This document shows, in pieces, positions 5,556-58,901 of a stretch of DNA of 64,000 bases. The stretch is from a virus (taxonomy: Duplodnaviria; Caudoviricetes). A model generated the notes under the pieces. It worked only from the letters and a program-made list of their open reading frames with translations. It was not told where the DNA came from and ran no database searches. The position numbers and the translations under genes are program-made. Each line of letters begins with the position of its first letter. Within the stretch, counting starts at the first letter, position 1. The stretch spans positions 2,268 through 66,267 of the IMG/VR virus record IMGVR_UViG_3300036855_000024; one strand, written 5' to 3'.

Positions 5556-5865
5556 GCAGTCTGATCATTAGTGGGCACTCTTCCAGCCACTCAATGTCAG
5601 TCTGGGCTAGCAATAAGCTGTAAGAACTATCGAGGCAGTCACTAGCAGCATCTCCATTAGGTCCCGGAACGCTCAGAACGTCAAGCTCGTAAGCGAACTT
5701 AAGTGATGCTGCATTACGTACGAGATAATCAATAACATTTGCTAGGCGGTTATCAGTCAAGTCGTCTACTCTTACTCGTTCTGCTAGTCTCCCCCAAAAC
5801 TCAGTCTGATTGAGAATATCAAGTAGGGTAGGAAACTCGTCAGTGGATTGCTCGCCCGTAGTCAC
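5527..5865 (-). CDS. Hypothetical protein
   Basis: 112-aa ORF overlapping the upstream stop codon. Confidence 0.65.
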   Translation of the reverse strand: MTTGEQSTDEFPTLLDILNQTEFWGRLAERVRVDDLTDNRLANVIDYLVRNAASLKFAYELDVLSVPGPNGDAASDCLDSSYSLLLAQTDIEWLEECPLMIRLRELQEERGI

Positions 5866-7991
5866 TCTGGATACCTGTCTTCCTTTACGTAGTCAGAGTT
5901 AAGAGTAAATTCGTAATCCAAGCCACGCATCTTCATCTCACACGGGCCTCTGAACACGCAGCGAGGACACGTGATAGGTCCGGGCGCTGCCCAGATGCGA
6001 ACTCCCTTATCTATCATATCTTGCACTTCTAGGCTTACGTTAGTCAGTACTTCCTTTAACTCTGCTGTGTTCTTTTCTCGTCTGAACCGCTTGTGAAAAA
6101 TGGGTGCTTCACTACTCTGCAAAAATTCTAGGAACTCATCGTAGGCACCGTCCGCTAGCCCGTCAAAATCCTCTTTCTTGACCGTCTGCAAATAAATGTC
6201 GTACGTGGTGCTCATGTTCTTGTCTTGACTGAAGATCCCACCATTACGCTTACGTCGTAACCGGACTGGAGGCTTAGGATAATCCTTCCTGATCTCGGCG
6301 AGGATAAATCCTCTCACATCGAGATTCATGACGTATCGGAGGACTGCACAGTAAGTGCTGAGTTGGTCGTGACTCCATACTAGGTTATCCTGGCTAAAGC
6401 GGTTGGTGTTTTTCTCATTACCATCGACAGCCTTATCGCCGCCTACAGTGTTGTGAGTTAGTAAGTGGTCATCGACCACATATAGGGAATCGCTGTTAGA
6501 GACCCTAATACATAAGGTCTCTTCCTCACTGTCAGGTTCAATGGAGATGATTTTCTTTCTGTTCTTATTCCTACTAGGTGTGAATGTACTAGCCTTACGT
6601 TCGAGTGTGAAAGGATTAGCATTATTAGGTAGGTACACGGTGACTACACACTCAGGGACAGTTCCACCTTTACGTGTGTGATCCCTAATCCAAATGAATC
6701 CACGCCCACCCAACGAGTCGACCAATTCTTTAACGTCTCTAGCTAGTTGGTGCGAAGTAGTATAGAACTTAGAGTTACCTTTCTCAGTACCGCCGTCTGT
6801 GTCCATAAGTCCTGCGAGCAACGCTAGTCGCTGTGCTATTGAGCCACGCTTATACGTCTCAGGTATGAACTTGTTGATAGACAGGTGTCCCATTAGACCT
6901 AGGTTACGCATATCGGGAATGGCACCACGGATTGTGTGGCCGTATTTACCGTCATAGAATCCAAGTGACCAGTGATTAGGGGCATTGGCCATAAGTTTAG
7001 GTACCAAGCCGTCGCCATTGGTGAACCTGACTATTTCCGTACTCATCCCCCCATCACCTATCAAGAGCCCCAATACGTAGGGGTCTACGTCGTATTGCTT
7101 CTCTGTATACTCAATAGGCTCTAGCTCTGGGAGGAAGTAATAGCCGCCACACTTCTTAGCTAACTCGTCTTTGACTTGTTCAGTAGTTAGTACCTTGTCT
7201 TTAACAGAATAGCTAGTGCCGACAGACCAAAGATGTTCCCCCGTAGCGCGAGTTACCGACCCATCTCTAGTCGTGATTTTGTAGACCTGTTTACGTCCTT
7301 GCGGATAGACCCCGATGACCTTTTGAGCTTTACCGTCACGGCCTACTATTTCACTGCCGACAGATAGCGCTCCTAGGGTAGTCCGACCTTCCAGTGTTAG
7401 GACTGTGGTATCTAGTGGTTGAGCCTTCCAGTCGCCGACTAGGTAGCCGCCGTGCTCTAGATCTTCAAAGATAACGTCAATACGGCCTTCATGTACGACG
7501 ATATCGCCTAGGTCGTGTTTTTGACCACAATTAGTATTCCAGCACCGGAGGTTATCTCCAGTCTCTGGATCGAATAGCGGAACCTGAAACTTTACTTCCG
7601 TCTTAACCGGCTTTAAGTTGGAGTCCTCTACAGGATGGATAGTCAGGACGTAATGCTCCAACATCTTAATGCCAAGCTCGACACGCCCGGCGTAGTCGTC
7701 CCTTCCATCCCATGTGAGTCTGGTCTGACTCGTAGCTGCCAGGTATCGGTCTCGCTGTTCATTGCAGCAGTTGGTGAATGCCTCGATAGCAAGAGCTAGC
7801 TTCTGCCAGGGTGTGGTCTGGTCCCAAGTGGCCGGGTTATAGACAACCTGCATTCCGACGTGGAACGCTGTTCCGAATTCAAGAGCTTGCGGACTGACAA
7901 TAGGTTGCCAGCCTTCGCGCCACCCCCAATTCCACGCTCGCTTACAGCGACGGGCAGCTAAGCGCTCGGAACTCCTGACAATGTGGGGCAT
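5862..7991 (-). CDS. Cas4-like PD-(D/E)XK exonuclease containing an intein
   Basis: RC near the N-terminus, FGTAFH, EVKF, GRIDVI, GDWK|T motif and C-terminal CPRCVFRGPC (4Fe-4S staple). Confidence 0.85.
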   Translation of the reverse strand: MPHIVRSSERLAARRCKRAWNWGWREGWQPIVSPQALEFGTAFHVGMQVVYNPATWDQTTPWQKLALAIEAFTNCCNEQRDRYLAATSQTRLTWDGRDDYAGRVELGIKMLEHYVLTIHPVEDSNLKPVKTEVKFQVPLFDPETGDNLRCWNTNCGQKHDLGDIVVHEGRIDVIFEDLEHGGYLVGDWKAQPLDTTVLTLEGRTTLGALSVGSEIVGRDGKAQKVIGVYPQGRKQVYKITTRDGSVTRATGEHLWSVGTSYSVKDKVLTTEQVKDELAKKCGGYYFLPELEPIEYTEKQYDVDPYVLGLLIGDGGMSTEIVRFTNGDGLVPKLMANAPNHWSLGFYDGKYGHTIRGAIPDMRNLGLMGHLSINKFIPETYKRGSIAQRLALLAGLMDTDGGTEKGNSKFYTTSHQLARDVKELVDSLGGRGFIWIRDHTRKGGTVPECVVTVYLPNNANPFTLERKASTFTPSRNKNRKKIISIEPDSEEETLCIRVSNSDSLYVVDDHLLTHNTVGGDKAVDGNEKNTNRFSQDNLVWSHDQLSTYCAVLRYVMNLDVRGFILAEIRKDYPKPPVRLRRKRNGGIFSQDKNMSTTYDIYLQTVKKEDFDGLADGAYDEFLEFLQSSEAPIFHKRFRREKNTAELKEVLTNVSLEVQDMIDKGVRIWAAPGPITCPRCVFRGPCEMKMRGLDYEFTLNSDYVKEDRYPE
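6450..7424 (-). mobile_element. Class 3 (Ala1, WCT) intein with LAGLIDADG homing endonuclease, 325 aa
   Basis: Begins AQPLDTT. Block B TRATGEHLW (W), block F ETLCIRV (C), block G LLTHN followed by +1 Thr. LAGLIDADG motifs YVLGLLIGDG and LLAGLMDTDG. Confidence 0.9.
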
Positions 7992-10740: not shown

Positions 10741-10916
10741 CAGACTATCACCTAGAGCGGTCTACTACTAGGTTCAACACGGGCAGGCTAGGCATGATCA
10801 TCGGTGCTGGGTCGGTCTCAGCCTGCGGCCAGTAGGGGCGTTGCCTAGCGTCCTGCCCCTCAGCTCCAACCTGACAAGATCAAGAGGTACGTCCGGTGTA
10901 ACCACCCTCGGTGGGT

Positions 10917-10961
10917 CTGTTGATCATGCTAGCGCGAGCTTGAGAGCTCCATGATCAACAG
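10917..10961. repeat. 12-bp perfect inverted repeat with an inner hairpin
   Basis: CTGTTGATCATG (10917-10928) / CATGATCAACAG (10950-10961), enclosing GAGCT-tgag-AGCTC. Confidence 0.85.
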
Positions 10962-11354
10962 TGGAGGCATGGCTAGCGTATGCAAGGTTCGAGCGGGTAT
11001 GCAGACATAAATCAAACGTAGAAGATGATCTAGGAGGCCCTATAAGCCCAGGTCAGAGGTAGTAGAGAGTAGTAGAAGAGAGTAGTAGAGAGCAGAGAGT
11101 ATGAGTGTTTGCAGGGTTCTGGCTACGTACAGGTCACACTGTCCGGACTGTCCCCGTTTCGTTGGGGGATCAAACTTTCAAACTTTGCAAACGTTCGACG
11201 TTTGCGCTGGTCAGAGGTTCGCAGCGTTTGATTTAGCGTTTGCAACGTTTGCAAGATCATTTACCGTTCTGCCCCAGTCTGTGTGCGTTTGTCCGTTTCT
11301 GTAGTCGCGGTGGGTGTACGTAAAGGTCGATTAGAGACAGTACGTACATGGCAG

Positions 11355-37194: not shown

Positions 37195-37731
37195 CTACAC
37201 AAAGTCACGCCGCTTTATTTTCGCCATCCGGCCATCCGGGTGATGCCAGACGATGCCCTCGTGTGGGAAGTCGGCCAGGAACGCGACGAGTGTGTCGAAG
37301 TCACGAGGTGCGTCCTTTATCTCATCAGCATCATCGTGGGAAACTAGAACGTGCCCAGCGAACCCCTCCGGGTTTCCGTTGACCTTCGGCCCGCATAGTT
37401 CGTACGTGCCAGGGGCAACACTCGTTGAGCCGTCCACCGCTTCGGCAAGGAACTTAGCGAACGGGGACCGCTCAGCCGGTTCCCACCCCACTGTCTTACC
37501 TGTGACGTCGTCACTCATAGCCGGAACGAAACCGTCAGGTTCCGGCTTCCCCGGTTTAATCTCCCGGCGCGCCCACCACGCCGTACCATCGAACATCACA
37601 CACGTCCCGTCGTACTTCCTGGTGGGTGTACCTTCCCCATCCAGTACCCACTGGCAATCAGGGTGAATTTTCGCAAGCAAACGACGCCTATCGTCAGGAT
37701 CACGCTCAAATAGCGTGGGAATTTTCTTCAT
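37195..37731 (-). CDS. RNA-ligase-like nucleotidyltransferase (DUF5565-type)
   Basis: MKKIPTLF, TRKYDGT (motif I KxDG), YELCG, HEGIVW (motif IV), MAKIK (motif V). Confidence 0.75.
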   Translation of the reverse strand: MKKIPTLFERDPDDRRRLLAKIHPDCQWVLDGEGTPTRKYDGTCVMFDGTAWWARREIKPGKPEPDGFVPAMSDDVTGKTVGWEPAERSPFAKFLAEAVDGSTSVAPGTYELCGPKVNGNPEGFAGHVLVSHDDADEIKDAPRDFDTLVAFLADFPHEGIVWHHPDGRMAKIKRRDFV

Positions 37732-37976
37732 AGTGCGCACTCTTTCTCTCGGTGGCTGGTCCCACAATCTACGCAGTAGTGCTCAGGGTGTTCTCTGTGC
37801 AGCGCGATGAGTACATTACCCAGCACCGCGTCACGAAGAACGCCGGACACTCTCACCTCGCGCGGTACGGCGTGGTAGCAGGCGTAGACATACCCATCGT
37901 GCGGGCACCTGACATACAGCAGGGCGAGCAACCGCGTGGTGTCCGGGTGGTAGTAGAACGTCTTGTCACGCATCAC
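37728..37976 (-). CDS. Hypothetical Cys/His-containing protein
   Basis: CPHDG...CYH...CVDCG; stop overlaps the next start. Confidence 0.55.
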   Translation of the reverse strand: MMRDKTFYYHPDTTRLLALLYVRCPHDGYVYACYHAVPREVRVSGVLRDAVLGNVLIALHREHPEHYCVDCGTSHREKECAL

Positions 37977-47387: not shown

Positions 47388-47586
47388 GGTTTACTACCTC
47401 ATTTCTTGGGAGTGCATCGACTCTGCCAGGTCCCGGTATGGATAGTCTGATTACCAGTGGGAGTGCTAGCAGTGACTACGGGAACTCCACAGTCTTTAGG
47501 GCACTCCCGCGCTACTGGTTTGGGAAACGAAATTGACATGACCACACTACCTTAAGAGTAAATGGATGGTTGGTTAAACTAGTGAG

Positions 47587-47658
47587 CGGCCCCTGTAGGA
47601 ATTGAACCCTACTACTCTGCATTGAGAATGCGGCGTCTTACCATTAGACTAAGGGGCC
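47587..47658 (-). tRNA. tRNA-Glu (CUC), slightly irregular T arm, no encoded CCA
   Basis: GGCCCCT/AGGGGCC acceptor, GTCT/AGAC D stem, CCGCA-TTCTCAA-TGCAG anticodon arm, GTAGG-GTTCAATT-CCTAC T arm. Confidence 0.8.
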
Positions 47659-50689: not shown

Positions 50690-50726
50690 TAATCTCTCCT
50701 AGTACTGCATATGTTTTGTTAAAGAG

Positions 50727-50814
50727 TGGCGGATAGCGGAGTTGAACCGCGTGCAGCCTATGACAGCGGCACCCATGACCGGCCGATCTTGGTTATCATT
50801 CGGCAGTATCCGCC
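50727..50814 (-). ncRNA. Aberrant tRNA-like element (pseudo-tRNA, GUC-type loop, enlarged D region)
   Basis: GGCGGATA/TATCCGCC acceptor, GCGG-TTCAACT-CCGC T arm, CTGTCAT loop on a weak stem, GCCGA/TCGGC stem with a 13-nt loop. Confidence 0.55.
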
Positions 50815-50883
50815 ATGCTGTGGACACTTACGCGGTCCACTTACGTCCTTTCTACGTCAGTCTCATTGGGACTACGCGCGGTG

Positions 50884-51072
50884 TTACCACCGCGCCCGCG
50901 AAATCCGACGAACACCCCGACGCCTGAAGGCAATCACAATGCATATCATCACGAGGTCGAATACAGCCGGGATCCACAGCGGCGAAAGAACCCACCACCA
51001 CGACCAGCCGATTACGTGTCCGAGCTTCAAGCCAACGAATAGCACGGTCAGAAGTACGGTAAGCATTTCCAC
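50884..51072 (-). CDS. Small membrane protein (LKLGHVIGWSWWWVLSPLWIP type)
   Basis: Widespread phage Trp-rich TM motif. Confidence 0.75.
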   Translation of the reverse strand: MEMLTVLLTVLFVGLKLGHVIGWSWWWVLSPLWIPAVFDLVMICIVIAFRRRGVRRISRARW

Positions 51073-51124
51073 TTTTAGTTCTCCTAAAGTTCATTGGGAC
51101 TCACGGACGGGCTAAGCTATTACG

Positions 51125-51535: not shown

Positions 51536-51763
51536 TCACTTGCTGATTGAATAGCGCGACGGTGGCAGGTACATTACCAGGTGTTGGGCTAACTTTCTCT
51601 CTAACTCGTTCCTCTTGCGGCTGGCTAGGACCGTGCAATAGACAGGATCGGATATCCCTGCCACGAAGCCATTTTCCGTTACTTTGTGCACGCTGCTATT
51701 CAACCCTTCCCCGGTAATCCCCACGGTAGGGGACGGATGCGGGGGAAGTCTAAGACACGTCAA
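51536..51763 (-). CDS. Hypothetical protein
   Basis: The ORF's 5' part overlaps an RNA-like hairpin, so the start is probably internal. Confidence 0.35.
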   Translation of the reverse strand: MTCLRLPPHPSPTVGITGEGLNSSVHKVTENGFVAGISDPVYCTVLASRKRNELERKLAQHLVMYLPPSRYSISK

Positions 51764-52279: not shown

Positions 52280-52806
52280 GTTATTCTCCGTTTCCGTTGA
52301 GCTACTAAGGCTTGGTGGCTCTCCGTAGAGATACGGAAGGCTGACAGACAATCTGGCGGATACTGCCGAATTGGCAGTGTGTCAACACCCTGGCGCGATG
52401 ATAGCGACTTATAGGCGATTAGCTGTCAGCAACCGTATTGCTACGTAGTGATTACATGTTCTGGTCCTCTTGCCTCTCCGGTAATCCCGACAGAACGGGA
52501 CGGATGCGGGAGAGGCAGATTGTGTAGCCGTTCCTCACAGCGGCACTGTGTAGCTAGGTGCGCTTCCGAGACAGTGGCTAACTAACTGGCATTTTTGCCC
52601 TAGGAGTAAACTCCGGGGCTACGCTCGCAGCGGTTCGGTATAACCCTTAGCTACTGGGGCGAACCGTAGATTCTCCCTCTACGGAGGTTTAAATTTGGTA
52701 GCTTGCCCGGAATCTGGGTCACCCTGGTCAATTCGCCTGCTGCGGGCCTGCCAGCGGTTCGAATATCCCTCGTGTCTCCGGGGGCCTTGCTTGCCTTACA
52801 ACGAGA

Positions 52807-52952: not shown

Positions 52953-53534
52953 TCACTGGAGACGCACGACGTCGCGGGAGTTGCTGTAGTTACCAGGCTT
53001 ACGCGGTTCGAGCAGCCGCTCCACCTCTGCCAGGTCATCGACGGTCCAACATGCCCTGACAGCGCGTTCGATGGTTCCGATCCTCACTGCCAGCGCTGAG
53101 GATGCTCTGGTGTCAGGTTCAGCGTTGAATGCAGTCAGCGCGGTCAGGAGGGCTAACACGCAGCCGACCAACAGTGCAGCGCCAGTGATGCCTACCCACC
53201 ACGGCACTGAGAGCTTTGCTGCAACGATCAGGGCCAGAGATCCCAGGATGCCGCTCAGTGCTCCCAGCTTTGCCCACAGAGACGAATCGTCGTGCGCACC
53301 CTGTCGGTACTGGTCGGCCTCTTGGTTGGCCTTGCCCCACTGCTCATAAAGCCCTATCAGGACTGGCCGTGCTACCCGGTAGGCAGTCCAGCGGTAATTA
53401 ACTCCATCTGCCTCGTCCTGGTGCCGCTGGTAGAGGTAGCTACCAGATTGAGCTGAGTCGCGAGCACGGCGCATCTGGGCAAGCTGCATTTCTAACTCGC
53501 TGGTCTCTTTATCCCACTCGTCCATGATTGCCAT
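52953..53534 (-). CDS. Membrane protein (2 TM, coiled-coil N-terminus)
   Basis: Start reassigned to MAIMDEW (GGAAAGGGAG RBS). Confidence 0.65.
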   Translation of the reverse strand: MAIMDEWDKETSELEMQLAQMRRARDSAQSGSYLYQRHQDEADGVNYRWTAYRVARPVLIGLYEQWGKANQEADQYRQGAHDDSSLWAKLGALSGILGSLALIVAAKLSVPWWVGITGAALLVGCVLALLTALTAFNAEPDTRASSALAVRIGTIERAVRACWTVDDLAEVERLLEPRKPGNYSNSRDVVRLQ

Positions 53535-53554
53535 GGTGGCACTGCTCCCTTTCC

Positions 53555-53737
53555 GTGACCGCGCGAGGCAAGCCACTACACGTACACCTTTCCTACTACC
53601 CCCGGGGGTCTGCGGGCTACACATCGGCGTTCTGCCCGTTAGGAGGGGGTGTCTGGCTACATGTGTAGTGCACGTGTAGCCCTCCTCGGCAGGAGACGTG
53701 TAGTGATCAAGTGTAGGGGCATGGCCCGCGCGGTCAC
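53555..53737. repeat. clt-like cluster of 8-bp CTACAC(G/A/T)T repeats bounded by an 11-bp inverted repeat
   Basis: Copies at 53576, 53617 and 53657 (forward, the last with one mismatch) and at 53661, 53672, 53696 and 53709 (reverse). GTGACCGCGCG 53555-53565 / CGCGCGGTCAC 53727-53737. Confidence 0.75.
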
Positions 53738-55293
53738 AATGAGTAGTATCTGTCATCTTCTGTCTTACTTATTACTGGCGGTTCGCACTTCATGAGATCA
53801 CCCAATATGTTAGTAACCACATTAGGGTTACGCACAATATCGTTAAAGTCTTCCTTTAGCTTGTCAATAATTTCCCCTCTAGACATCGGATTTCTACCGT
53901 TAATGTCATTATCTACTACTACAGCCTGTACTCTTGCTGCCCGTGTTGTGTATTTATCGGCAGTTGCTGTTACTTCGTGACCGTTGGATGCTTGAGTCTC
54001 GATTTGTGGGCTGTAGCTTTCAACCTCGGTATAATTACCGTCACCGTTGTTGGCTTCGTGCTTATTAGTTTCGTACGCTTGCATACGGAGGAATTTGGTT
54101 TCAGCTTCCATCAGTTCGGCTTCACTAGCTGGGCTAAGTAGGCTGTTCATAGACGTAGGGACCACCCCCGCTACCGGAGTATTCGTAGCGGTCTGCGGAG
54201 TAGTCAGGTAATCAAGAAATTCCTCTGTGACGTACTGGTGTCTGTTGGCATAGTCCTTCCCGAAGGCTTGTGCAGTACCCTCGTCAACCTCATGTGGAAT
54301 GTCTCTCCGGGACCAAGATATATCGCTTAGTGTCAATCCATCATGTAGCTTGCGCTTACCAGGGTCCTGAGCGTAAGGAATACGCAGTTTAAGGATAGGA
54401 TTACCGGGACCCAAATCAGCCCAACACTCCCCAGTATTGGCAGGGATATCCAAGTCATACCTACCAGTGACACGTCCAATAGAGAGGTGATCACGAATAC
54501 GGAATATAAATGCGAAACCCATCATTGCGGCAGTGGTGCCCCCCTCGTCGCCTAGGTTATCCTGAGTATCGCGTTGAGTGGACAACCACTCATACATATT
54601 AGCTCCAGCCGTTCCCCTGGCAACATCAGCTATAAGAGTGCTAGCGCCTTTCTCCTCGCCCCCGTAGATAGCCTTAACCATTCTGTTCTGCACTAAGTAG
54701 GTAACCTCATCGAGGATAAGAATTCCGGCAGGAAGGTGCTCACGCTTGGAGACCGGCCGAATGTTCATCCGGTAGGCAGCACCATTAAGAAATGCTGCAA
54801 TCATGTTGCACACGTCCTGGTGTCCGTGTGCAATCCAATCAATAGGAGCCTTGATCCCGGTGTCTAGGTATGGCTCTACCCATGCGGAGACGAAATCCCA
54901 CAGCTTCCACACACCGCCGATCCAGATGAAACAATCAGGGCACCGCGTCGCATGGGCAAGCATGATGTGAATCAGGCTGGACTTACCGCTAGTACTTGCT
55001 CCGATGACCTGGCCATGCTGGAGGAGATTCATCTGTGCTGGCTTCCTGTTGGTCCGGTAGCCAACGGTGCATAGTTCGCCAATAGACGTAGGAATAGACC
55101 CGTGTTTGTCCAAATATGGAATTACCTTAGAGGCAAACTCTGCTGACTCATAAACAGTAATGAGGAAGCGCCCGGCCTGCCCAGTTGGCTCGACAACTAC
55201 CTGCCCTTTATCTACTGGCTCTCGACTAGCAATGCTCAGCGCTGTAGCAATAGACTCGGCAACCTCGCCAACTGGAAAACTATACTTAGGCAT
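53734..55293 (-). CDS. FtsK/SpoIIIE-family ATPase with C-terminal winged helix (TraB-like)
   Basis: HGQVIGASTSGKS Walker A, ILILDE Walker B, STQR, GECW; C-terminal MSRGEIIDKL...VVTNILGDL...RYY. Confidence 0.8.
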   Translation of the reverse strand: MPKYSFPVGEVAESIATALSIASREPVDKGQVVVEPTGQAGRFLITVYESAEFASKVIPYLDKHGSIPTSIGELCTVGYRTNRKPAQMNLLQHGQVIGASTSGKSSLIHIMLAHATRCPDCFIWIGGVWKLWDFVSAWVEPYLDTGIKAPIDWIAHGHQDVCNMIAAFLNGAAYRMNIRPVSKREHLPAGILILDEVTYLVQNRMVKAIYGGEEKGASTLIADVARGTAGANMYEWLSTQRDTQDNLGDEGGTTAAMMGFAFIFRIRDHLSIGRVTGRYDLDIPANTGECWADLGPGNPILKLRIPYAQDPGKRKLHDGLTLSDISWSRRDIPHEVDEGTAQAFGKDYANRHQYVTEEFLDYLTTPQTATNTPVAGVVPTSMNSLLSPASEAELMEAETKFLRMQAYETNKHEANNGDGNYTEVESYSPQIETQASNGHEVTATADKYTTRAARVQAVVVDNDINGRNPMSRGEIIDKLKEDFNDIVRNPNVVTNILGDLMKCEPPVISKTEDDRYYSL

Positions 55294-55356
55294 TTCCTCT
55301 CACCTCCTATGAGACGCAATGAACACTCTAACTAAGTGTGTAACTCAGTCAGCGTA

Positions 55357-55527
55357 CTACTCTGAACCGCAGTAGCAATCCTCTTCGTCGTAGTCAACAT
55401 CGTCATCGTCATCATCGCACCCACTATCTGCGCACTCATCCGCCTCCTCTTCAGTGTTGTACTCTGAACCGCAGTAGTCGCATTCCCAGAATGTGTGGCC
55501 TTCGTCGGGATCATCGTAGATTCTCAT
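55357..55527 (-). CDS. Highly acidic Cys-rich mini-protein (56 aa)
   Basis: MRIYDDPDEGHTFWECDYCGSEYNTEEEADECADSGCDDDDDDVDYDEEDCYCGSE (hand translation). Confidence 0.6.
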   Translation of the reverse strand: MRIYDDPDEGHTFWECDYCGSEYNTEEEADECADSGCDDDDDDVDYDEEDCYCGSE

Positions 55528-55537
55528 GGTTTAAGTA

Positions 55538-56125
55538 TCACTTTCCAGTTGCTGGAGTTTGAACGAGGAGTTGCCTAGCTATTTGCGATCCAGTATCTGG
55601 GTCCGTAATCTCTTCACTACTGATGATACGGACTCCTGGGTGTCCTGCCTTAGTAAGGATAGGGCGGAACTTTTTGACAGTTGGGTTATCCTCTACACTA
55701 TTGATTCTGGCTACTTCTACCACGTTTGTTTCAACGATTTTTTTCTTAGGTCGGCTTATCCAGTATTCCTCTCCTCGGCACCCCCAGTACGTTGCAATGC
55801 AGATAATAGGCATTGCTATGGAGAGCGCAATCCAGAACGTAGGAACACAGACAAATACCAACGTCCAGACAATGAATGCTAAAGCCGCAATCCTGATGAG
55901 AGCTGTAATTCTGTCTATCTTCCTGTCCGGCAATTCGTGGAACATGTCAGTATTGCGAGTCACCTGGCCTATAGAGGCCAGAATGATAAACCCAGCAGTA
56001 CCTATTGCAACGGCAGTGATCCACCACTTGACCCCATAGATAGTAGGGATCACTGCCGCTGCCACACTCAGCGAACTACCGAATATCGGCCAGAACATTT
56101 TCCACTGCATTTCTAGCTCACCCAC
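55538..56125 (-). CDS. Multi-TM protein resembling the N-terminal membrane part of TraB
   Basis: Four hydrophobic segments, then ILTKAGHPGVRII. Confidence 0.65.
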   Translation of the reverse strand: MGELEMQWKMFWPIFGSSLSVAAAVIPTIYGVKWWITAVAIGTAGFIILASIGQVTRNTDMFHELPDRKIDRITALIRIAALAFIVWTLVFVCVPTFWIALSIAMPIICIATYWGCRGEEYWISRPKKKIVETNVVEVARINSVEDNPTVKKFRPILTKAGHPGVRIISSEEITDPDTGSQIARQLLVQTPATGK

Positions 56126-56158
56126 TCACCCTAGTATTGCTAGCTGCTGATTACCAAA

Positions 56159-57961
56159 TTACTCCACTGCTCGGCTATTACCCGCACTCGAAGCAATAGC
56201 AGCGTGCCCAGCTGTCAACGCTGCTCTGTTCCGCGCTACGTCTTCCAACGCAGCCGCGCGCATTAAATGGCCTTGGGCGGCAGCGTGCAAATCTGGGTCA
56301 TTAGACTGCAAATACGTCCCGGCGATATTCCTCTCCCTATTCGCTGCGATAATGTGTTGCACTGCTGAATGATTGGTGTGCCCAGCAGAATTGATATGTG
56401 TTGCTGCGACCGGCTGTCCTGTCTGTGCGTCTTGGACGGGACCGTTGGAAGACCTTGTAGCCATTGCATTCTCTCCTGCCTCTGTTGGTTGTGTGTCCTG
56501 CCCGTAGGCACCGCTCGTTAGGTGCTGAACCGACGGACCTAGTTCAGTAGTACTATTGATTGGCCCACCGTGTGGGTGTTCTCTATCAGGTCGGTGAGAC
56601 CATACTCTACTCGCTCCTGCTGTATCGTCTTCACTTCCATCATCTACGCTCTCGTGATATCCGTGGTCCTCACCCCTGGTATCGGTAGCATTGCGGCTAT
56701 TGGTGGGGATTCCGCCATCTACGTAGGTTCTACGGTGGCTTCGGTAGTCGGGTCCGGTGGCAGTCCACCAATTGCGCCAGTCTCGCCTATTCTGCCGTCC
56801 ATTATTCCAGCGGTTACGCCTGCGCTGCCACCATGACGGGTTAGTGTTTGTATTGGACGTGCTTCCAGCAGTGGGAACATTCGGAGTGTTCTGCCCACCA
56901 CCTGAGCCTGAACCGTTGCCGCCCCCAAACCAACGCCATGGCTTATACCAACTTCTACCCTTAGTTCCACTATTACCATTATTACCATTCCCGCTGGTGT
57001 TATTGTTACGCTTGCGATCTCCACCGTTTCCGTTTCCGTTACTGCCACTGCTACTGCCCCAGTTAAATGGATTCCAACGTCCGCCACGATGGCGCCGGTT
57101 AGGTGAATTATTATTCTTAGTGTTAGGACTGTTAGGCCCACTCGTCGGTCGGCTAGTAGGGTTGGTGGCGTTGTTGGATCGGTTACGCCTGCGGAACGGA
57201 TTCCAACGGCTACGAGGGTTCTGAGGGTCGGTATTGCGGGTCCGCCGTCTGTCCCTACCAGGTGGCCTGCCAGTAGGGTTCTGTGGGTTCCTAGAGCGTG
57301 TTCTTGACGTATCTCTGTCCCGGTTCCTCCTGAAGGGATTACGCCGACTGCCATCCGGGTTTCTGAACGAGCTACGCCGAGTACCGTCCGGATTACGCCG
57401 GAATGGATTTCGACTCCGGGAATTGGAGTTCCTACCCGGCCCACCTGGGCCGTTAGCACTCCGATTGATCGGGTTGCGTCCGTTGCGATTCCTATTAAAT
57501 AGTGACCTGCGCTGCCTCTGATTAGTACCGTTTGAGTTCGTCTTGTTAGGTGCCTTCTTGGATTTCTTTTTCATGTACGCGCGCACCGCGAGGAAAATCA
57601 GGAGCAGTACACCGGCAATCAAGCCAATAACGAGAGCAGCAGTCTTATTGACGAACCATAACCCAATAGCTATCACTACGAGCAGAATTGGAACGATCAA
57701 CCACAACGCACGAGCATGCTGGATTCCAGTTGATTGCAGAGCTGCTACCTTATCCTTACCCTGCAACGGCTTATTAACCGGCTTACCATCCGGGCCAATA
57801 GCAGCAGTTTCAGATTCATCAGGAATCTTGTCGAAAATAGACCCGCTATTACTGCTATTACCTCCATTAACGTTCGAACTAGTGGACTCCGCACGATTTT
57901 CCGTAGGAGAGTTCTCTGCCTTGGATAACGGTACTGATACCGGTTGTCCGTTAGTGCTCAC
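56159..57961 (-). CDS. Membrane protein with long Arg/Asn/Gly/Trp low-complexity region (Spd/Tra-like)
   Basis: Start reassigned to the GTG at 57961 (AGGAGG RBS). Two TM segments, then repeated RNPF/WNPF motifs. Confidence 0.7.
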   Translation of the reverse strand: MSTNGQPVSVPLSKAENSPTENRAESTSSNVNGGNSSNSGSIFDKIPDESETAAIGPDGKPVNKPLQGKDKVAALQSTGIQHARALWLIVPILLVVIAIGLWFVNKTAALVIGLIAGVLLLIFLAVRAYMKKKSKKAPNKTNSNGTNQRQRRSLFNRNRNGRNPINRSANGPGGPGRNSNSRSRNPFRRNPDGTRRSSFRNPDGSRRNPFRRNRDRDTSRTRSRNPQNPTGRPPGRDRRRTRNTDPQNPRSRWNPFRRRNRSNNATNPTSRPTSGPNSPNTKNNNSPNRRHRGGRWNPFNWGSSSGSNGNGNGGDRKRNNNTSGNGNNGNSGTKGRSWYKPWRWFGGGNGSGSGGGQNTPNVPTAGSTSNTNTNPSWWQRRRNRWNNGRQNRRDWRNWWTATGPDYRSHRRTYVDGGIPTNSRNATDTRGEDHGYHESVDDGSEDDTAGASRVWSHRPDREHPHGGPINSTTELGPSVQHLTSGAYGQDTQPTEAGENAMATRSSNGPVQDAQTGQPVAATHINSAGHTNHSAVQHIIAANRERNIAGTYLQSNDPDLHAAAQGHLMRAAALEDVARNRAALTAGHAAIASSAGNSRAVE

Positions 57962-58088
57962 TATCTGCCCTCCTATCTGGGTAGGCCGGAATCCGACCGG
58001 CTCTGTCTGCTGTGATGCTGACACTCTATACTGTAGCCTATAACACGGGCAGGGGGAAACAGGCACCACCGATAAGAGAGGTCGCCGG

Positions 58089-58901
58089 ATGAACGTCACT
58101 GCGCAGTCCTGGCTACTCGGAGCGCAGCTCCGCAGGCTGAGGGAGCAGGCTGGATTAACTGCCAAATACGTCGCGGAGACCTGGCTACAGAGATCTACCA
58201 GTTTCGTTTATTCGGTAGAAGGTGGATATCGGACACTTAATAAGTTGGAGTTGGAAGGGCTAGTGAGTACAGCCTATGGCAGGCCGGATGCTATCAAAAG
58301 GTTAGAAGACTTGCGGTCACTTGTCTCGGAAGGTAAATCAACTCGTGATAAGTCTACCAAGTACCCGGATTCGATGATGTTTCACGAACTACAAACGAAT
58401 GCTACGCAAGTATTCGACTTGTCTATCGAGTTGGTTCCCAGCCTCTGCCAAAACGAAGAGTACTCAATGGCGATGATGCGTATGGCTGGAAGAGACAACG
58501 AAGAGTCTCAGCAGTACACAAAGTCTAGGTTAGATAATCAGGTGAGGCTATTGAGCATGGATAGCCCACCAGATATCCACCTTACGGTGACGCAGGGAGC
58601 TCTGGATCGAGCATTCAGAGTAGATGGGCAGATTGCAAAGCTAGTCGAGAGGGCAGAGCACCCAGCCATCACACTCCGGATGATACCCACATCAGCAGGC
58701 GTGCACATGTTCAACAGTAGCTTTACCGTACTGCGCTTCCTCGACCTACCCAGCATTCTATTTCACGATCTGGTGACTGGCGGCGAACTGATAGACGACA
58801 ACAACGATGTAGAGCACGCAATGACCAGGTTAGCGCAGACTGAACCTATCCTGATGAGTGCAGAGGAAACTCTAATCAGACTCAGGCATATGGGCGGGTA
58901 A
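58089..58901 (+). CDS. XRE HTH + DUF5753 regulator
   Basis: LGAQLRRLREQAGLT...YSVEGG...; LVPSLCQNEEY, R..RL..Q, RMIP..AG.H, SFTVLRF. Confidence 0.85.
   Translation: MNVTAQSWLLGAQLRRLREQAGLTAKYVAETWLQRSTSFVYSVEGGYRTLNKLELEGLVSTAYGRPDAIKRLEDLRSLVSEGKSTRDKSTKYPDSMMFHELQTNATQVFDLSIELVPSLCQNEEYSMAMMRMAGRDNEESQQYTKSRLDNQVRLLSMDSPPDIHLTVTQGALDRAFRVDGQIAKLVERAEHPAITLRMIPTSAGVHMFNSSFTVLRFLDLPSILFHDLVTGGELIDDNNDVEHAMTRLAQTEPILMSAEETLIRLRHMGG

Follow-up and report, generated by a model that had tools for sequence, protein, structure and literature searches.

Introduction

Conjugative double-stranded DNA translocases of the TraB/Tra type in Streptomyces form a hexameric pore and are needed for contact-dependent transfer and pock formation. 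The TraB and Tra translocases of the Streptomyces plasmids pSVH1 and pIJ101 combine a membrane anchor, a single FtsK-type motor and a C-terminal winged helix-turn-helix (wHTH) domain (PMC4447253, PMC3583192). In clt loci, direct 8-bp repeats specific to each plasmid are the binding sites of the cognate TraB (PMC4447253), and imperfect inverted repeats often accompany them (PMC3583192). pZL12 has been described as a Streptomyces plasmid-phage with a transfer locus (Zhong et al. 2010, J Bacteriol 192:3747, as cited in PMC3583192 and PMC7157519). FtsK-like DNA translocases are annotated in approximately 99 Streptomyces phage records, and Thoma et al. have suggested that SpdB2 homologues present in actinophages may spread phage DNA. 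Here, we describe a related locus in a tailed phage known from the IMG/VR virus record IMGVR_UViG_3300036855_000024 (66,267 bp, rated 100% complete by CheckV). The analyzed stretch of 64 kb, referred to as the window, corresponds to bases 2268-66267 of the record, and all coordinates are those of the window. A block of five genes on the minus strand (52953-57961) is preceded by a divergent gene coding for an XRE-DUF5753 regulator. The region 52953-58901 may well be a single regulated operon for a membrane-anchored, sequence-directed double-stranded DNA (dsDNA) pump of the FtsK/TraB class, a reading to which we give even chances. It is of a kind already known from pZL12, from the annotated phage FtsK-like translocases and from the suggestion of Thoma et al. 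What is new is an anchor detached from the motor, with an acidic Cys-rich mini-gene in between, a clear candidate docking site, and the lack of a visible maintenance module.

Results

The motor gene (53734..55293, minus strand) codes for a 519-aa protein that was assigned to the FtsK/TraB class of motor ATPases by fold, motifs and a match to PHROG 31069 (FtsK/SpoIIIE-like, E 1e-6). The protein has one motor domain, no transmembrane (TM) segment and a C-terminal winged helix at approximately residues 450-519. The Walker A (GASTSGKS), Walker B (ILILDE) and STQR motifs are as described in a first-pass annotation of this DNA, and the residues G98, S102, G103, K104, D195, E196 and Q240 are invariant across 15 homologues. 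The sequence alone produced no match passing threshold in Pfam, NCBIfam or PDB sequences, and a profile of the homologues found only chance-level matches among PDB sequences. An AlphaFold (AF2) model was built with 15 homologues, with a predicted local distance difference test (pLDDT) value of 74. When this model was compared using Foldseek, the best match was an FtsK motor (6t8b, E 3e-12), followed by EccC (4nh0, E 2.3e-11), TcpA (6o1x) and HerA; the EssC/EccC structure 4lya was also among the top matches. The last 80 residues were modeled alone with 47 sequences and produced a domain with the order helix-helix-helix-strand-strand and a pLDDT of 92. The top fold matches of this domain were all winged-helix DNA binders, namely BlaI, Zur, IdeR, IclR and LexA (probability 0.9-1.0, E 0.05-0.2). 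The models show a motor with an FtsK-type fold and intact Walker A, Walker B and TQR motifs that terminates in a winged helix, which agrees with the C-terminal domain that had been proposed from the sequence.

The gene located 243 bp upstream of the motor gene (55538..56125, minus strand) codes for a protein of 195 aa from a GTG start, or 190 aa from the ATG at 56110, with four hydrophobic segments. This 4-TM protein aligns collinearly, over its whole length, with residues 1-200 of fused proteins from a Glycomyces tenuis provirus and from the viral contig L003, with 22 invariant columns. The blastp E values were 4e-6 and 3e-4, and a word-indexed search with the 4-TM protein returned only the self-match. 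A profile search of 1.8 billion representatives identified 580 relatives of the ATPase at E ≤ 1e-3, 111 of them at E ≤ 1e-30. Most of the 150 relatives listed are fused proteins of 650-800 aa in which the motor begins near residue 200. Since the 4-TM protein aligns throughout with the N-terminal 200 residues of fused relatives, the pump is taken to be truly split, and these comparisons show the 4-TM gene to be the detached N-terminal anchor domain of the translocase. A frameshift or an assembly error was considered as the origin of the split and rejected; about 12 homologues of approximately 500 aa share the opening residues of the ATPase (M-x-K/R-Y/F-x-F), and a sister phage, L002, has the same gene order of anchor, Cys-rich mini-open reading frame (ORF) and motor. 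The split TraB-like layout suspected in the first-pass annotation is in line with these results.

The anchor and the motor were co-folded and reached an interface score (ipSAE) of 0.59, compared to 0.00 for the best control, with the runs agreeing in at least 80% of contacts and a partner pLDDT of at least 60. In the calibration of this assay, 58 of 80 solved complexes passed the mark, as did 2 of 110 mismatched pairs, and the passing scores of 0.60 or below comprised 7 of the 80 solved complexes as well as both passing mismatches. The model is thus weakly supportive of an anchor-motor complex. For the pSVH1 TraB, a two-hybrid assay detected an interaction of the first 130 aa with the translocase part (PMC4447253), and because of this precedent the split anchor and motor could assemble.

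The motor gene is followed by a 199-bp region (53535..53733) that is non-coding because the start of the next gene was revised to the ATG at 53534. On the coding strand, immediately past the ATPase stop codon, this region contains four direct copies of CTACAC(R)T followed by two to three inverted copies, and a 27-nt imperfect inverted repeat (53555-53581 / 53711-53737) encloses the array. The sequence CTACACRT is found six times in the window, a total equal to the chance expectation, and five of these matches are located within 128 bp (53576-53703). If one mismatch is allowed, the array includes seven copies. Counts of exact 7-9-mer clusters miss the array since its copies differ at one position, while one-mismatch or hexamer counts detect it. 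Only two loci in the window have at least six hexamer copies per 200 bp, this array and a region at 11.0-11.3 kb. A dense, element-specific array of 8-bp repeats is located directly 3' of the motor gene. By analogy, the array at 53535-53733 resembles a clt locus and is a candidate docking site. At the same position, the sister phage L002 has three GGTCACGTGACC-type palindromes and additional GTGACC copies, seven GTGACC in total, which form the densest cluster of the L002 locus. Arrays 3' of the ATPase stop codon were also found in the plasmids pGBA129-24a (CGGTAG) and pAmyja1 (CGGGGA) and in the viral contig L044 (GAGTGA).

Very dense hexamer arrays, with maxima of 24, 15 and 13 copies per 250 bp, were observed in the IMG/VR contigs L046 and L047 and in L007 (near 2001). 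They lie within 3 kb of the ATPase gene, not directly 3' of it, and either low-complexity coding sequence or displaced docking sites could account for them.

A profile of the ATPase family (110 members) was compared to other proteins with hhalign in local mode. The strongest similarities were to proteins of pGBA129-24a (1.5e-56), pAmyja1 (2e-40) and Streptomyces anulatus (1e-26), followed by those of phage PIS 136 (2e-25), Hiyaa gp102 (2e-16), pZL12.71c (6.6e-14, 98% probability, 425 columns) and Jay2Jay gp111 (1e-12). Glycomyces EccC-like proteins were matched at approximately 1e-10 and the pIJ101 Tra profile at 1.6e-9 (252 columns, with a weak second hit on the wHTH). A chromosomal FtsK-like protein of Glycomyces (852 aa) was matched at 2e-4 over 63 columns. 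Judging from these alignments, the family clearly does not group with chromosomal FtsK. Its domain architecture is that of TraB, not that of EccC; its sequence is not closer to canonical TraB than to EccC. The classification as TraB/FtsK made in the first-pass annotation, which had proposed a family comparison with TraB, FtsK and EccC, thus stands for the FtsK-type motor fold and for the separation from chromosomal FtsK, and is not supported for a specific grouping with TraB over EccC. Of 301 genomes sampled from the class, a single one contained the family.

The similarity to EccC raises the question of protein export. The ATPase might be a minimal version of the type VII coupling ATPases EccC and EssC, exporting phage proteins, e.g., lysis or host-modifying factors, via the flanking membrane proteins. 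The EccC/EssC structures 4nh0 and 4lya rank among the top fold matches, and the profile similarity to the Glycomyces EccC-like proteins equals the similarity to TraB. However, EccC and EssC have three tandem FtsK-like ATPase domains and no DNA-binding domain, compared to the one motor domain and wHTH of the phage protein, and neither the winged helix nor the adjacent DNA repeats would have a role in protein export. Furthermore, no WXG100-like or other ESX components were noticed in a search that was not exhaustive. We consider a secretion function very improbable.

All genes of the operon-like block proposed in the first-pass annotation are present, with two starts revised. The 600-aa membrane protein (56159..57961, minus strand), recognized by translation and hydropathy, most likely starts at the GTG at 57961 behind the ribosome-binding site AGGAGGG, replacing an earlier call of 668 aa. 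Its two TM helices (approximately residues 79-132) are followed by about 470 aa of basic low-complexity sequence rich in N, R, G and S that is predicted to be cytoplasmic. The composition of the protein includes 12.7% N, 11.8% R, 10.8% G and 10% S, with 88 K and R residues vs. 41 D and E residues. The C-terminal 118 aa share 33% identity with a 631-aa protein of L002 (E 3e-12), the equivalent position in pZL12 (72c), S. anulatus and Glycomyces is also occupied by long TM proteins, and no usable lead for the 600-aa protein came from the Atlas. The protein is a candidate Spd-like accessory.

The last gene of the operon (52953..53534, minus strand), identified in the same way, codes for a protein of 193 aa whose N-terminal part is helical and whose two TM helices are C-terminal. 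Its start is most likely the ATG at 53534 behind AAGGGAG, which replaces a 267-aa call, and a terminator-like hairpin (52884-52870, minus strand) after this gene closes the operon. The protein shares 34% identity with a 213-aa protein of L002 (E 6e-20). The sub-threshold leads SLATT_1 (NCBIfam, E 0.025) and DUF4231 (Atlas, 0.82) suggest that it may have a SLATT-like two-TM fold.

Between the anchor and the motor genes, a short ORF (55357..55527, minus strand) codes for an acidic Cys-rich mini-protein of 56 aa, 25 of which are D or E, with six Cys residues in CxxC-type pairs; L002 has a 90-aa Cys-rich ORF at this position. A 20-nt inverted repeat (55269-55288 / 55532-55551, 85% complementary) flanks the mini-protein ORF on both sides. 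In the transcript, its two arms would join the end of the anchor coding sequence to the opening codons of the ATPase gene, and a coupling or regulatory structure is possible.

The divergent gene (58089..58901, plus strand) codes for the regulator, which has an HTH_31 domain of the XRE type (4e-6) and a DUF5753 domain (Pfam, E 2e-24), as had been reported in the first-pass annotation, and matches PHROG 9908 ("DNA binding protein"). A homologue with 40% identity occupies the same divergent position in L002, and a weak homologue is found on Actinoalloteichus pGBA129-24a. The regulator is a candidate repressor, predicted by analogy from its location in the KorA/TraR position. The 127-bp intergenic region (57962..58088), between the regulator start at 58089 and the GTG at 57961, presumably contains promoters and operators; a simple scan of it found no consensus promoter.

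The location of the module in the early/accessory arm among small membrane proteins is also compatible with a function in exclusion or host takeover. The membrane complex could block or expel the DNA of superinfecting phages or conjugative plasmids, or hinder the host FtsK or cell division, with the repeats acting as operators for the downstream gene. FtsK/SpoIIIE-like phage proteins are placed by PHROGs in the category "moron, auxiliary metabolic gene and host takeover", the repeats of L002 are operator-like perfect palindromes, and domains like those weakly signaled in the 193-aa protein are tied to conflict systems. On the other hand, a predicted DNA-binding wHTH fused to the motor, in combination with an element-specific array on the phage's own DNA, points to the handling of self-DNA. 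The conservation of the module on unrelated phage backbones and phage-plasmids would also be unusual for a moron. Exclusion or takeover is in our view decidedly unlikely.

The genome around the module is that of a phage, as the first-pass annotation had recognized. The structural arm (13.6-33.5 kb, plus strand) includes the genes for the terminase, portal, ClpP-type protease, major capsid protein and tape measure, and it is followed by a GH25 lysin gene. A leftward replication arm codes for a DUF3987 protein, a 709-aa LAGLIDADG-containing protein, an SNF2 helicase and an AAA_24 protein. The GC content of the window is about 51%. The capsid protein shares 50% identity, over 90% of its length, with that of the Streptomyces phage Dagobah, and because of this likeness a Streptomyces-like, mycelial host is plausible. 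The GC content was considered as an argument against a host of the Streptomyces type and rejected; the locus of the Streptomyces phage Jay2Jay has a GC content of 0.49, and the capsid of the phage described here matches that of Dagobah. The sister phage L002 has a genome of 66.3 kb with direct terminal repeats, a portal protein with 58% identity, and no integrase.

Searches of the 66-kb record with PF00589, PF00239, PF13614 and PF02195 found no tyrosine or serine integrase, ParA or ParB; the replication genes found in an evaluation of plasmid maintenance were those of the DUF3987, SNF2 and AAA_24 proteins. A PHROG scan of additional early genes found no lysogeny function. The first-pass annotation had assumed a lysogen and suggested a possible hybrid of a phage with a plasmid or an actinomycete integrative and conjugative element (AICE); neither has a basis in these results.

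These negative results have a bearing on the possibility that the module is a segregation device. The pump would load on the array and move phage genomes through closing vegetative or sporulation septa, so that compartments and spores inherit a carrier state with no cell-to-cell transfer. The parts needed for such a device are the same: an FtsK-type motor with a membrane anchor, a wHTH, and a site on which to load. Another mechanism of inheritance would be useful to a phage in which no ParA, ParB or integrase was found, and members of the family reside on extrachromosomal phage-plasmids. Nevertheless, pZL12 and some other relatives carry ParAB or an integrase besides the ATPase, which argues that the pump is not a simple substitute for them; the family is distant from the chromosomal FtsK-like protein in the profile comparison; and the phage has no known sign of lysogeny or of a carrier state. 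A role in segregation is unlikely, though it deserves more weight than exclusion.

Other features were observed in the rest of the window. The 709-aa protein of the replication arm (5862-7991, minus strand) has a LAGLIDADG_3 domain at residues 387-446, a segment that may be an intein or a homing endonuclease within a replication protein. The gap that separates the leftward replication arm from the rightward structural arm contains 8-9 copies of CAAACG / AACGTTTG (11013-11285) and four of GTAGTAGA (10761-11082); the cluster at 10761-11300 is a candidate origin or operator region. The early arm includes an RNA ligase gene (37195-37767, minus strand; PHROG 14301, E 5e-53) and a tRNA-Glu(CTC) gene (47586-47658, minus strand), the latter being the only Rfam match over 47-59.2 kb. 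The segment 50400-52950, approximately 2.5 kb located 3' of the operon, is negative in Rfam and contains a single ORF of over 100 aa (50726-51115); hairpin-like 39-nt elements (51708-51746 / 52475-52513) and other segments are duplicated in it.

Discussion

The split anchor, the FtsK-type motor with its winged helix, and the repeat array next to the motor gene led us to propose that the operon builds a TraB-like pump that would drive double-stranded phage DNA across cross-walls or into a neighboring cell. This proposal is drawn by analogy and is, in our judgment, evenly balanced between right and wrong. The anchor and the motor would come together at the membrane as a hexameric ring, the winged helix would dock on the CTACACRT array of the phage genome, and the motor would pump the unprocessed dsDNA of the phage through hyphal cross-walls or into a touching cell, in the same way as TraB with clt-bearing plasmids. 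The basic 600-aa and 193-aa membrane proteins would be Spd-like helpers, and the XRE-DUF5753 protein would repress the operon. We infer the assembly, the binding, the translocation and the biological purpose of this system. Because no integrase, partition or lysogeny genes were found, the likely use is to spread the phage genome, either replicating or in a carrier state, without virions rather than to mate a stable lysogen.

Several observations weigh against a TraB-like pump. In the profile comparison, the pIJ101 Tra and the EccC-like proteins were about level, and no specific likeness to TraB emerged. The ATPase scores 11.4 bits against the Pfam FtsK_SpoIIIE family (PF01580), with a cut-off of 24 bits (E 0.21); among 15 family members, seven match at E ≤ 0.1, the best at 1.7e-4. 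The sites in L002, being perfect palindromes, would equally suit an ordinary dimeric repressor, and no array was found 3' of the gene in the Glycomyces provirus, L042, S. anulatus, pZL12, Hiyaa, Jay2Jay or PIS136. The accessory membrane proteins have no similarity to SpdA, SpdB and KilB of pIJ101 or to pZL12.70c, 72c and 73c, and the regulator is of the XRE type, not GntR. The idea of Spd-type helpers, advanced in the first-pass annotation, survives as a layout that resembles that of kor, tra and spd genes and not as protein similarity. Related FtsK-like genes are found in large Streptomyces phages, e.g., Jay2Jay (133.5 kb, many tRNA genes). Phages of this type are presumably lytic, in which case the function need not be plasmid-like conjugation. 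Finally, the equation of pZL12.71c with the published traA is an inference of ours from annotation and secondary citations.

The comparison with pZL12 is nonetheless the most direct. Both replicons include virion genes and an FtsK-like ATPase, and the two ATPases are homologous. In the portions of the pZL12 record that were covered, 71c is the sole FtsK/SpoIIIE-like gene noted, and it is flanked by the genes for the membrane proteins 72c, 73c and 70c. However, pZL12.71c is a fused protein of 725 aa, whereas the anchor of the phage is coded for by a separate gene. The plasmid-phage carries genes for ParA, ParB and an integrase, with a GntR regulator nearby; the phage has an XRE-DUF5753 regulator, and maintenance genes were not found in its 66-kb record. 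The two also differ in the repeat array, which was not found 3' of the pZL12 gene, and in their accessory proteins, which are not detectably similar.

The similarities to the Streptomyces TraB and Tra systems are in architecture: the membrane anchor, the single FtsK-type motor, the C-terminal wHTH, the placement of short element-specific repeats, along with an inverted repeat, at the gene's 3' end, and the small membrane proteins in the operon. The divergent regulator and flanking membrane proteins also recall the korA-tra-spdA-spdB-kilB region of pIJ101, an analogy of layout only. TraB and Tra have the anchor on the same polypeptide and reside on plasmids or AICEs, but in the case described here a tailed phage is the replicon, the anchor has its own gene and the sequence similarity is remote. 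The regulator families differ as well (XRE-DUF5753 vs. GntR TraR/KorA), and Tra proteins of the pIJ101 type have hits to PF01580 and MarR_2, neither of which is passed by the phage ATPase. Cultured actinophages have homologous genes annotated as FtsK-like DNA translocases, a predicted function, which include those for gp102 of Streptomyces phage Hiyaa, gp111 of Streptomyces phage Jay2Jay, Saccharomonospora phage PIS 136 gp041 and a gene of Thermobifida phage P1312. These translocases are fused proteins of 600-850 aa in genomes of 83-134 kb, and no downstream array was seen in those inspected (Hiyaa, Jay2Jay and PIS136).

The closest named relatives are the ATPases of Actinoalloteichus pGBA129-24a, Amycolatopsis pAmyja1 and S. 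anulatus unnamed2. These phage-plasmid ATPases are fused proteins annotated as "hypothetical protein", and their replicons are circular plasmids of high-GC hosts that are typed as non-mobilizable. All plasmid matches of the ATPase are on replicons that include phage genes, coding for a holin and a peptidoglycan-recognition protein in pGBA129-24a, a terminase in S. anulatus unnamed2 and a GH25 lysozyme in pAmyja1. Three actinomycete replicons of 59-94 kb deposited as plasmids and typed as non-mobilizable (L006, NZ_CP016078.1; L007, CP109520.1; L008, NZ_CP008954.1) have a member of the ATPase family together with holin, lysin or terminase genes, and are probably unrecognized phage-plasmids.

A more specific version of the TraB-like pump can be proposed tentatively, as a possibility on the unlikely side. 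A phage that lacks lysogeny genes could use the pump and the clt-like site as a "movement" system during infection that pushes its replicating dsDNA through hyphal cross-walls or into hyphae in contact. A single adsorption would thereby spread the infection through a multicellular host with no need for virions, and assembly would be under the control of a switch formed by the split anchor and the acidic mini-protein.

Genes for FtsK-like translocases are widely annotated in actinophages, and the plasmid-phage pZL12 is their sole experimental precedent. The phage described here and its sister L002 represent a compact set amenable to testing, in which the anchor is separate, the motor ends in a winged helix and a candidate docking site of 199 bp has a clear 8-bp motif. 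If the proposed activity is confirmed, phages of mycelial bacteria would gain a second route of spread that is free of capsids, and several actinomycete plasmids considered non-mobilizable would be phage-plasmids carrying a transfer pump. Such a route would bear on plaque biology, on the evolution of phage-plasmids and on gene transfer in antibiotic producers.

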